Shown here one piece after another: positions 5,450 to 40,289 of a DNA stretch of 64,000 nucleotides (position 1 is the stretch's first letter; every line of letters starts with the position of its first letter). Under the pieces are notes generated by a model. That model searched no databases. It saw only the letters and a list, made by a program, of their open reading frames with translations, and was not told where the DNA came from. Both the position numbers and the translations under genes were made by a program. The DNA comes from Candidatus Uhrbacteria bacterium RIFCSPLOWO2_01_FULL_47_25 (GTDB lineage Bacteria; Patescibacteriota; Patescibacteriia; GWA2-46-9): contig MGEK01000004.1 in NCBI GenBank assembly GCA_001791325.1, forward strand, positions 8,566 through 72,565. Reading direction: 5' to 3'.

Positions 5450-5718
5450 CCGAGCTCTTCTTCTTTTTTCATAAGGTGTTTGAGCTGGGAGATCGTCTAA
5501 CTGGCCCCGTTAGAATTTACAAGGACTTCCTCCTAAAGCTGCCGGGTCGTCTAACGGTAGGACGCCAGGTTCTGGCCCTGGTAATCTAGGCCCGCCCCCA
5601 CACTAATAAGATCATCTCATAAATTTGTGGTGAAATGTAATAATGTAATGTTGTACATATGCCTGCGGGGTCGTCTAATGGTAGGACACGACGCTCTGGA
5701 CGTCGGTATCTAGGCACG

Positions 5719-5889
5719 CCCCGCACCAATTTAACTTTGTCTAGATGTTATTGTATTATACTTTTACATAAAAAGATCTAAGAAGCCGATCTGGGAGATC
5801 GTCTAATGGTAGGACACGACGCTCTGGACGTCGGTATCTAGGTTCGAATCCTAGTCTCCCAGATTGGTTTCTTAGAAATTGGTGCGGGG
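5719..5889. mobile_element. tRNA-carrying inverted-repeat element (inner layer)
   Basis: Perfect 14-bp TIR ccccgcaccaattt/aaattggtgcgggg. Confidence 0.8.
5792..5862 (+). tRNA. tRNA-Gln(CTG), intact innermost copy
   Basis: Complete cloverleaf with GGTTCGAATCC T-arm; no encoded CCA. Confidence 0.95.
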
Positions 5890-6117
5890 TGAAAGTCCTA
5901 GCCCCGCAGGCATGTGTACAATTTGAGAAAGTTGTTAATCTGAACGATTAGTGTGGGGGTGAAAGTCCTAGTCTCCCAGCTTAGCCACTTTATGAACAGT
6001 TAATTAGTGCTGGGTAAGATAGTCTGATTTCAAAAAATAAAAATGAAAGGGCTTGGCTAGAAAATGATATTTTGCTAAAATAGTCGCAGTAATTATTAAT
6101 CGTATAACGTAATCTTT

Positions 6118-36874: not shown

Positions 36875-37853
36875 AGTAACGGAAGATATAAATAAGGCCA
36901 GTGAATCATTTGATTCAAATAAAACTGCGGATAAAGAGAAAAGCCGAGAGGCCATGCGCTCAATAGTTTTACGATGGATTGAAAGCGAGGATGAAAAAAT
37001 AAAAAAACATAATATAGAAGAAGAATCCGTTGTTAAAGATGATAGGGGAAAAAGAATAATTGAAGCGCGGTCATTTGATATCGCCACCGTAGAAAAAACC
37101 GAAAGGGAAAAAGAAACTATTCACAAAGCTCGTCAGCCAAAAGCGTTGTCGGTCAAGAAAAGAGAGCAACCATCAGGAGAAATGGTGGATCGCCGAGAGC
37201 GCGACATTCCGGAATTCCATGTTACTCCCTCATTGCTACCGCGCCGTAAAGTGACCAACGGATTGGCAGTGCTGTATTCTTTTATATGGGTTACGTTTAT
37301 CGCGGGTATAATGATTTTAAGTTTTGGTGTTTACAAACTAGGGTGGAATGACCCTTTGACCAATCAATTATTGAACTACGTGCCATTGCCGTATGGTTTT
37401 GTTCGTTATCATCCAATTTGGTACAGTATTTATCGTCAGGAATACCAAGCCATTAGTCGTTTTCGCGGTCAACAAGCAGTAAGCACTCGTTTAACTGTTT
37501 CGCCCGAAGAGATTGAAGGGATTTTATTAAGGCGAACGATTGCCAATGATTTAGCGTGGAGTAATGGTTTATGGGTTACTAGCGAAGAAGTAGAGGGTGA
37601 ATTTGACAGTATTGCATCAAGGGCTGGATCAACAGAAGAGGTTGAACGTGCCATACAATCATTATGGGGATACAGCCTTGATGAATATAAGCAACGTGTA
37701 ATTAGACCGTATTTGCTCAAAAAGAAATTATTCGCTGTTTTGGCCGCCAACAATTTATTGCGTCGTAAAACCAGTGAGGCTAACGATTTACAAGTACTTG
37801 ACGCCTATCTTGATGGGCTTAGGGCATCAACGCCAGTGGTACTGTTTCGCTAA
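36861..37853 (+). CDS. Membrane protein with SurA/PrsA N-terminal-like domain; start probably ATG 36861
   Basis: Charged N-terminus; TM; VTSEEVEGEF; YSLDEYKQRVIRP. Confidence 0.55.
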   Translation: MNGNKVTEDINKASESFDSNKTADKEKSREAMRSIVLRWIESEDEKIKKHNIEEESVVKDDRGKRIIEARSFDIATVEKTEREKETIHKARQPKALSVKKREQPSGEMVDRRERDIPEFHVTPSLLPRRKVTNGLAVLYSFIWVTFIAGIMILSFGVYKLGWNDPLTNQLLNYVPLPYGFVRYHPIWYSIYRQEYQAISRFRGQQAVSTRLTVSPEEIEGILLRRTIANDLAWSNGLWVTSEEVEGEFDSIASRAGSTEEVERAIQSLWGYSLDEYKQRVIRPYLLKKKLFAVLAANNLLRRKTSEANDLQVLDAYLDGLRASTPVVLFR

Positions 37854-37955
37854 TCCCGTTAAAGCCCAAAGATAAAAATTTATATGGAGCTGGAGGCGAG
37901 ATTTGAACTCGCGACCCATCGCTTACGAAGCGATTGCCCCGCCTGCCATCGCCTA

Positions 37956-38137
37956 AGCTTCCTGTTAGAATTGAACTGACGTCCGCGGTTTACCTGCCCG
38001 CCATTTGCCTAAGCCAGCGGTGAGATTTGAACTCACGACCTCTGCTTTACGAAAGCATTGCTCTACCTCTGAGCTACGCTGGCAAATCGCGATGGCAGGC
38101 GGGCGATACCGCTGTTCTACCACTGAACTAAGGAGGC
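37956..38137 (-). pseudogene. Middle tRNA-Thr(CGT), interrupted inside the anticodon by 37993-38103
   Basis: gcctccttagttcagtggtagaacagcggtatCG|Taaaccgc...gttcaatt. Confidence 0.8.
38012..38083 (-). tRNA. tRNA-Thr(CGT), intact innermost copy
   Basis: gccagcg/cgctggc acceptor; ttCGTaa loop; GTTCAAAT T-loop. Confidence 0.95.
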
Positions 38138-38194
38138 TCGGGACATGGCGGGCAGGTCTACCGTTGAGCTACTCCGGCATGCTTTAATAAAATA

Positions 38195-38265
38195 AGCGGG
38201 ATACCGGGATCGAACCGGTGCTCTCAGCTTGGGAAGCTGATGTAATGCCACTATACTAATCCCGC
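38195..38265 (-). tRNA. tRNA-Gly(CCC)
   Basis: gcgggat/atcccgc acceptor; ttCCCaa loop; GGTTCGATCCC. Confidence 0.93.
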
Positions 38266-38271
38266 AAAAGA

Positions 38272-38342
38272 TACGGGTAACCCCGCTTAGCGGGGTGTTC
38301 CTAGCTTGGGAAGCTAGTGTACTGCCATTGTACTACACCCGC
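38272..38342 (-). pseudogene. tRNA-Gly(CCC)-like gene with the T-arm replaced by ccccgctaagcgggg
   Basis: Intact D and anticodon arms (ctagc-ttCCCaa-gctag); no TTCRA loop; acceptor has G-U pairs. Confidence 0.75.
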
Positions 38343-38540
38343 ACGATACACGACCATAGCCAATCGGTTCTTCTTTTGATATAATAAAAAACAAAACTTG
38401 TCAGAATACGTTATACGTTTCTAGAGTATAGAAAATGGAGCATTTATTGGCAAGGTGTTGGGTGATATTTGCCAGTCTGCCGCTCTTTTTTATTAAATTT
38501 CACGAATTCCCGAGCATAAGTTCGGAGATTATTTAGAAGA

Positions 38541-40128: not shown

Positions 40129-40160
40129 GTTAGCGGCTGGCGCGAAGTCCCGCCCTCTTC

Positions 40161-40231
40161 TCGGGGGTCGTCTAATGGCAGGACATCACCCTTTGGAGGT
40201 GAGTATGATGGTTCGAATCCATCCCCCCGAG
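40161..40231 (+). tRNA. tRNA-Gln(TTG) enclosed by a 13-bp inverted repeat (40148-40243)
   Basis: tcggggg/cccccga acceptor; ctTTGga loop; GGTTCGAATCC. Confidence 0.95.
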
Positions 40232-40289
40232 AAGAGGGCGGGAGAGCCGTGAACTCAATAGTTTAGAAATGGCATAGAGCTATAAATAG

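Follow-up and report, generated by a model that had tools for sequence, protein, structure and literature searches.

Nested tRNA-Thr(CGT) genes in a CPR bacterium and a family of palindromic cassettes whose cargo matches the tRNA gene that they interrupt

In Candidatus Uhrbacteria bacterium RIFCSPLOWO2_01_FULL_47_25, an intact threonine tRNA gene lies inside a second threonine tRNA gene, which in turn lies inside a third, all three with the anticodon CGT. The inserts are cargo-bearing members of a short palindromic repeat family that is also found empty in this genome, and we are confident that the nest arose by serial insertion at the DNA level, with only the innermost gene working. Such cargo-matched tRNA cassettes are real and general, and we found no description of them in the mostly open-access literature that we searched. 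Each is likely a selfish element, one that breaks a gene and at the same time brings a substitute for it. Essential genes are in this way replaced from within, time after time, by an element of ~110 bp that the cell can no longer do without, since the spare copy lies inside it.

Results

A tRNA-Thr(CGT) gene nested twice within genes of the same anticodon

We analysed a stretch of 64,000 nucleotides (contig MGEK01000004.1 of assembly GCA_001791325.1, positions 8,566 to 72,565), hereafter the window, to which the coordinates of the nest refer. A preliminary description, made from the letters alone, had placed three tRNA-Thr(CGT) genes one inside another on the minus strand; when we re-extracted the nest from the window, all of its coordinates proved correct. 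ARAGORN calls the inner gene (38012-38083) an intact tRNA-Thr(CGT). Excising the 111-bp insert 37993-38103 rejoins a middle tRNA-Thr that is split within its anticodon, CG|T, and excising the 219-bp insert 37938-38156 rejoins an outer tRNA-Thr with an encoded CCA; both joined forms are again called Thr(CGT). As proposed, exact excision rebuilds the middle and outer genes with zero target duplication at either junction. The outer gene is interrupted at GGTAGA|GC, in the 3' strand of its D arm. In the order of transcription, the locus contains the following features:

38425..38453, minus strand: sigma-70-like promoter match TTGCCA-17-TATACT upstream of the Gly-Thr cluster, by match to the consensus only
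38195..38265, minus strand: intact tRNA-Gly(CCC), given for context
38157..38178, minus strand: 5' half of the outer (oldest) tRNA-Thr(CGT), positions 1-23; the joined form is called Thr(CGT)
38138..38156, minus strand: left end of cassette 1, arm CCTGCCCGCCAT and 7-nt linker; 19/19 bases identical in the same-genus genome G001
38104..38137, minus strand: 5' half of the middle tRNA-Thr(CGT), split at anticodon positions 35/36; cargo of cassette 1 and target of cassette 2
38084..38103, minus strand: left end of cassette 2, arm CCCGCCTGCCAT and 8-nt linker, inverted relative to cassette 1; end motif
38012..38083, minus strand: inner intact tRNA-Thr(CGT), no encoded CCA; Rfam 68.1 bits, ARAGORN
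37993..38011, minus strand: right end of cassette 2, linker and ATGGCGGGCAGG; end motif
37956..37992, minus strand: 3' half of the middle tRNA-Thr, with two changes that break stems, G63>A and G70>A, when compared with G001, where this copy is intact
37938..37955, minus strand: right end of cassette 1, linker and ATGGCAGGCGGG; end motif
37885..37937, minus strand: 3' half of the outer tRNA-Thr, with anticodon arm, T arm, encoded CCA and the A70 mismatch; Rfam 31 bits

Both inserts are cassettes, of 108 or 111 bp, built from a 12-bp arm, a linker of 7-8 nt, a whole tRNA, a second linker and the complementary arm. The arms are imperfect inverted repeats that include one G-T and one C-A pair, and the cassette therefore has a direction. 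The outer cassette is oriented oppositely to the inner one, with CCTGCCCGCC at the left of the former and CCCGCCTGCC at the left of the latter, and both cargos lie in sense. Across the window we counted four copies of the end motif, exactly at the four cassette ends, against an expectation of 0.35; none of 100 shuffled sequences reached four. The 219-bp insert contains no ORF, and the window gave no Rfam intron match.

The three genes are clearly different, as had been noted, with pairwise identities of 61%, 71% and 76%; the cargo and target of each insertion are 61% and 71% identical. Also as first described, the outer and middle genes share a C3-A70 mispair whereas the acceptor stem of the inner gene is perfect. 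The middle gene has a further mismatch in its T stem, C51-A63. The assembly has no intact Thr(CGT) gene other than the inner one.

Relatives usually have a tRNA-Gly(CCC) adjoining tRNA-Thr(CGT). In this genome the intact tRNA-Gly(CCC) is immediately preceded, on its upstream side, by a second, dead-looking one (38268-38342, minus strand), in which a short palindrome with a CTAAG loop stands in place of the T arm.

Plain, singly nested and doubly nested states occur in one family

Three family relatives carry a plain tRNA-Thr(CGT) gene with CCA. In G001, the syntenic locus, between the same neighbours, holds cassette 1 alone, with its cargo intact. The two genomes agree at 100 of 108 positions of cassette 1. 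Two differences, G63>A and G70>A, disrupt stems, and they do so solely in the copy that subsequently received an insert. The order of events was thus likely plain gene, then cassette 1, then cassette 2, as read from these alignments, and the nest offers a clean record of serial replacement within one family. Because the outer 5' halves differ between this genome and G001, and the outer 3' half has been lost in G001, two separate insertions of cassette 1 are possible.

We compared alleles of the Thr copies by pairwise identity. Closest to the middle gene (80-90%) are five alleles, every one of them borne by a cassette, and the targets in which they sit differ in their acceptor stems. Cassettes like cassette 2, with its end orientation and its CG|T site, turn up at two loci of the survey described below (L077 and L277), the first of which also has the same type of linker.

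Cassettes with these ends carry tRNAs of 26 anticodons, matched to their targets

We searched for cassettes with two patterns, neither of which included the flanks. A pattern of the ends only matched 123 GTDB loci in the 8 of 64 parts scanned; among 129 ends-only matches, including 2 viral ones, 23 held a tRNA, 16 of these in CPR-labelled records. A pattern of the ends plus the T loop matched 120 metagenome loci in 26 of 64 parts. Both patterns combined yielded 143 tRNA cassettes, of which 132 are distinct, with 26 anticodons.

Exact excision restored a tRNA, as called by ARAGORN, in 84 of the 132 distinct cassettes; the other 48 targets, which are decayed, were not restored. The cargo's anticodon is shared by 77 of the 84 restorable targets, where chance predicts a fraction of 0.087, or ~0.5 within one amino acid. 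Some entries come from the same or close organisms, and 71/76 matched pairs were left after collapsing these. Nesting of the same isoacceptor, which the preliminary description had inferred to be a general process in this genome, holds here and far beyond, and is not random with respect to the identity of the host tRNA. On reading the seven non-matching targets, we found three to be cognate (with an extra palindrome or a 1-nt insertion) and three to have a destroyed anticodon; the last has a Pro-type body one transition away.

Best hits of all 132 flanks classed 94 as cognate, 20 as the same amino acid, 15 as weak and three as another amino acid, these three being cognate by eye. With the weak cases judged by eye, none of the 132 lies clearly in a tRNA gene for another amino acid or at a non-tRNA site. 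Genuine mismatches may exist at two loci, L244 and L234, the latter with a Thr(CGT) cargo inside a remnant that reads TGT. A related pattern surrounds a tRNA in 31 of 401 genomes of the class, against none for a reversed control; 28 of these loci comprised 11 matched targets, four called different (three cognate by eye, one unreadable) and 13 unrestored.

Insertion sites range across cassettes from tRNA position 19 to 55 and cluster at positions 19-24, 33-39 and 55, in the D, anticodon and T loops, with the cargo in the target's sense. Junction repeats are rare: two, one and one of the 132 repeat 2, 3 and 4 bases, respectively. Viral contigs gave 2 and 52 pattern matches, none of them a cassette of this end family, and yielded no viral carrier.

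On both sides, the linker commonly closes with CCT(G/A)A, immediately ahead of G1-C2 of the tRNA (L045, L111, L184, L276 and others), so that the acceptor stem continues the stem of the element. This continuity may explain a bias toward Thr, Arg and Pro cargos.

The same ends also enclose other cargo. In 106 of the 129 GTDB matches the cargo is not a tRNA, and apart from tandem repeats these cargos did not resemble the joined flanks. Many repeats of 100-120 bp that have similar ends but lack a tRNA are present in records labelled Pyrinomonadaceae and Desulfobacterales (L038, L044, L064; L032, L037, L049; and others).

Within the 1.2-Mb genome, the end motif occurs 60 times, several times as empty hairpins and in some cases in dead tRNA halves. 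It also surrounds tRNA-Arg(CCG), tRNA-Leu(TAG) and tRNA-Gly(TCC). Empty elements sit at many intergenic sites. A remnant for the same amino acid, scoring above all 60 random windows, lies within 300 bp of 20 of the 45 intact tRNAs, although a few of these are neighbour effects; several other end families are also represented among the remnants beside intact tRNAs.

Homology and survival may together match cargo to target

We favour, with moderate confidence, a DNA-level mechanism in which homology and survival act together on a hairpin cassette. The cassette would enter the cell by natural transformation and move as a single-stranded hairpin, with its ends as the stem and the tRNA as the loop. 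Its own tRNA sequence would pair loosely with the most similar resident gene, and a hairpin-recognising nuclease, acting in trans, would join it into a loop of the exposed strand. Homology would lead the cassette to related tRNA genes, and survival would remove landings in single-copy tRNA genes that the cargo cannot replace. The candidate enzymes would be small Ssn-like GIY-YIG nucleases in the first place and HUH (Y1) transposases in the second. ComEC is present in the genome.

Both components are favoured because neither alone readily explains the match. The identity of a cargo to its own target is 0.732, compared with 0.699 when pairs are permuted within an anticodon (0/5000), a small excess drawn from pairs that are not independent, and one that near-kin donors would also produce. 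Identity falls to 0.64 where the amino acid is shared but not the anticodon, and to 0.53 between different amino acids, with broad overlap, and a near-identical anticodon arm (at least 16 of 17 bases) is present in only 16 of 68 cargo-target pairs; homology alone therefore cannot easily account for the match. At the Thr nest itself, the 61% and 71% identity of cargo and target is low for strand pairing. Position by position, cargo-target identity has no peak at the junction. Survival alone does not easily account for it either, since neutral landings would be expected to be common and none is clear among the 132. As for the cost of losing a gene, the genome has a single intact gene per anticodon and no MnmG match, so that each tRNA is plausibly needed; the lack of an MnmG match makes C34 tRNAs such as Thr(CGT) in particular probably necessary.

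A more specific possibility, which we hold only tentatively, is that the element is protein-free and its cargo is its address: the carried tRNA would guide it, through pairing of loops or of strands in single-stranded DNA, to the gene with the same anticodon, which would be destroyed and replaced. If the cargo were the address, exchanging it would reprogram the insertion site without duplication or scar, and repeated rounds would turn over nearly half of the tRNA set in some CPR genomes. Guidance by the cargo would amount to a natural programmable, duplication-free insertion system.

It is unlikely, in our view, that the elements simply favour any tRNA-like hairpin loop, with the cargo irrelevant to targeting and lethality leaving only the cognate landings. 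Such a hot spot would fit the accumulation of empty palindromes in dead tRNA halves, the many cargo-target pairs that are no closer than random same-anticodon pairs, and D-loop sites such as GGTAGA|GC, which are common to many tRNAs. Neutral landings should then dominate, however, given the many occupied intergenic sites and the neutrality of dead remnants, and yet 0/132 cassettes lie clearly at a non-tRNA site or in a tRNA gene for another amino acid. The identity of cargos to their own targets also exceeds permutation. Oriented empty elements usable for a comparison of target preference numbered only three.

We regard as improbable a two-step route in which an empty palindrome lands in a tRNA gene and the tRNA of a donor cassette is later recombined between its arms. 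Thr remnants at L215 and L248 do contain empty elements, at this very D-loop site, but these can be deletion products; moreover, the intermediate would be without a working gene, and a cargo keeps its linkers from one target allele to another.

Candidate enzymes are not enriched beside cassettes

Under the mechanism of homology plus survival, the nuclease would act in trans. GIY-YIG genes lie within 1.5 kb of 1/28 cassette loci and of 1/28 plain loci, which is no enrichment. The genome has six small GIY-YIG genes; on reading, this end family brackets none of them. For one GIY-YIG stretch, NCBIfam gave no match. Five of the six adjoin a tRNA or tmRNA. At two places in this assembly (G000 C34:5366-5687 and C25:8025-8327) a small GIY-YIG gene and an intact tRNA (Phe and Val CAC, respectively) lie inside remnants of the same tRNA, with other ends.

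Searches for the Y1 transposase PF01797 found none in this draft genome or in four family relatives, and the end motif occurs near 2/30 Y1 loci as against 4/28 plain tRNA loci. No IS110 transposase was found in the genome, no cassette form of 282-342 bp in the 401 genomes. Two PF00589 genes are present, both on other contigs than the nest.

Targets decay and cargos do not

Stem mismatches affect 35/76 targets as compared with 12/76 cargos. That targets decay and cargos do not favours replacement at the DNA level and disfavours introns. At the Thr nest, likewise, the stem mismatches suggest that only the innermost, newest copy likely works, in agreement with the preliminary description.

The inserts could in principle represent tRNA introns of a novel type. 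The RNA would lose its terminal stem and have its halves ligated, so that one transcript would yield up to three tRNAs. Removal restores the genes precisely, the 294-nt RNA of the nest folds as nested cloverleaves (z = -4.7) and RtcB is present in the genome, all of which would suit such an intron. CCA, furthermore, is encoded by the outer gene but missing from the inner one, and searches of the assembly did not detect a CCA-adding enzyme. This last absence is likely an assembly gap, because 32/45 tRNAs of the genome, the inner Thr gene among them, have no encoded CCA, and the enzyme was found in 18/21 genomes searched, including all four family relatives. (In G001, the match to the enzyme comes in two pieces, C47:5457-5858.) Beyond the decay of targets in general, the middle gene acquired two stem breaks after its interruption, the outer 3' half is gone in G001, and extra palindromes litter the outer tRNA halves; no tRNA splicing endonuclease (PF01974) was found in the genome, and the spread of sites from position 19 to 55 also speaks against splicing. 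We therefore consider introns very improbable.

Independent contigs support the nest

Two contigs of run X3, which comes from a different study than the two runs flagged as potential sources, bear out the assembly: they bridge all eight junctions with 0 differences and at least 31 bases per side, covering 37600-38056 and 38038-38325. Runs X6 and X9 confirm the 3' junctions, and runs X10 and X18 have little coverage of the nest; the 18 runs listed included no RNA data set that holds the locus. No single public contig crosses the whole nest; the break falls at 38038-38067, a region made of words common to the tRNAs of many other organisms. Some joints in public contigs skip 111 or 219 bases, and we rejected these as evidence of excision, as they had short sides or lay in contigs with seven differences and were taken to come from other organisms. 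Although no one contig spans the nest, a chimera of strain variants or a local tandem duplication is hardly credible, given the eight junctions bridged in another study's run, the pairing with each other of the halves on either side of the contig break, the singly nested state in G001 and, against tandem duplication, the identities of only 61-76% among the three copies.

Discussion

The Thr cassettes miss a defining feature of each family with which we compared them: MITEs and MICs, REPINs, tRNA islands and introns. MICs are short cassettes bounded by inverted repeats that carry a passenger gene. MITEs are short and non-autonomous, with inverted repeats of 10-15 bp (PMC11602168). The cassettes resemble both in their terminal inverted repeats (here 12-bp arms), in the lack of a transposase gene and in a length of 108-111 bp. 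In contrast to both, they have no target-site duplication, which in MITEs and MICs is 2-10 bp; their ends are imperfect and oriented, their insertions nest, the passenger is a whole tRNA and the target is a gene equivalent to it.

Transposition of IS200/IS605 elements through single-stranded DNA leaves no target duplication. To our knowledge, REPINs neither carry a gene nor choose a target by their cargo. REP elements are linked to a transposase (PMC11893778). Like REPs and REPINs, the cassettes are dispersed, imperfect, GC-rich palindromes with empty and spacer-bearing forms and no duplication, but a cognate Y1 (RAYT) gene flanked by the repeat was not found here.

The same paper reports that SsnA cuts single-stranded DNA beside a hairpin and tolerates any loop in vitro, and that Ssn has been shown to cut single-stranded DNA and to modulate transformation, not to insert DNA (PMC11893778). 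Its main text makes no mention of tRNA or CPR, and its supplements could list Ssn repeats of CPR. This genome resembles the Ssn and NTS/SRM systems in combining small single-domain GIY-YIG genes with oriented hairpin repeats and ComEC; it differs in that GIY-YIG genes are not enriched beside this end family.

Islands that integrate into tRNA genes split the gene and restore its function from carried sequence, with subsites in the anticodon and T loop; they carry a fragment, use an on-board tyrosine integrase for recombination at an identical core, and leave one gene and a displaced fragment (PMC4383910). The cassettes likewise split a tRNA gene and supply its function from within. They differ in placing a whole foreign tRNA, 61-76% identical, between both halves of the target with no shared core, in having no integrase in the insert, in size (cassettes of 108-111 bp and 219 bp in total, as opposed to more than 2 kb for an island) and in commonly using D-loop sites. 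In the parts of these sources that we had, a match between cargo and target, here over 26 anticodons, is not a described feature of MITEs, REPINs or tRNA islands.

Introns of tRNA genes (group I and bulge-helix-bulge) and the intervening sequences of rRNA interrupt at D or anticodon loops, have ends that pair and restore the gene upon removal. In the cassettes, by contrast, the halves of the host gene decay and a splicing endonuclease was not found in the genome; as for group I introns, the insert, less its tRNA, has too little length left for a core. Fragments of tRNA genes in CPR genomes are accordingly easy to misread as introns or prophage scars. Because CPR tRNA genes move between lineages, they are poor phylogenetic markers.

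Other nested and bracketed tRNA genes in this genome

We excised all inverted repeats near each tRNA and ran ARAGORN in a permissive setting (-ps92), an approach that we dropped because it produced many false joins. On the plus strand of the window, tRNA-Gln(CTG) at 5539-5980 is enclosed twice, by shells that have ends of the CCCCGCACC type, located at the T loop, and its middle and inner copies share their D and anticodon arms exactly. An 11-bp inverted repeat brackets tRNA-Gln(TTG) at about 40149-40243 (plus strand), with no clear Gln remnant outside. Elsewhere in the assembly, ARAGORN gives tRNA-Asn(GTT) (C6:35835-36535) a 626-nt intron at position 35. A tRNA-Thr(TGT) nest (C17:5000-5600, minus strand) has four or five shells, in which the same cassette recurs and the dead halves hold empty palindromes. 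In a tRNA-Met nest (C40:7050-7400, minus strand), 17 nt are identical to the beginning of the Thr(TGT) cassette, which may reflect a landing in a similar but non-cognate gene.
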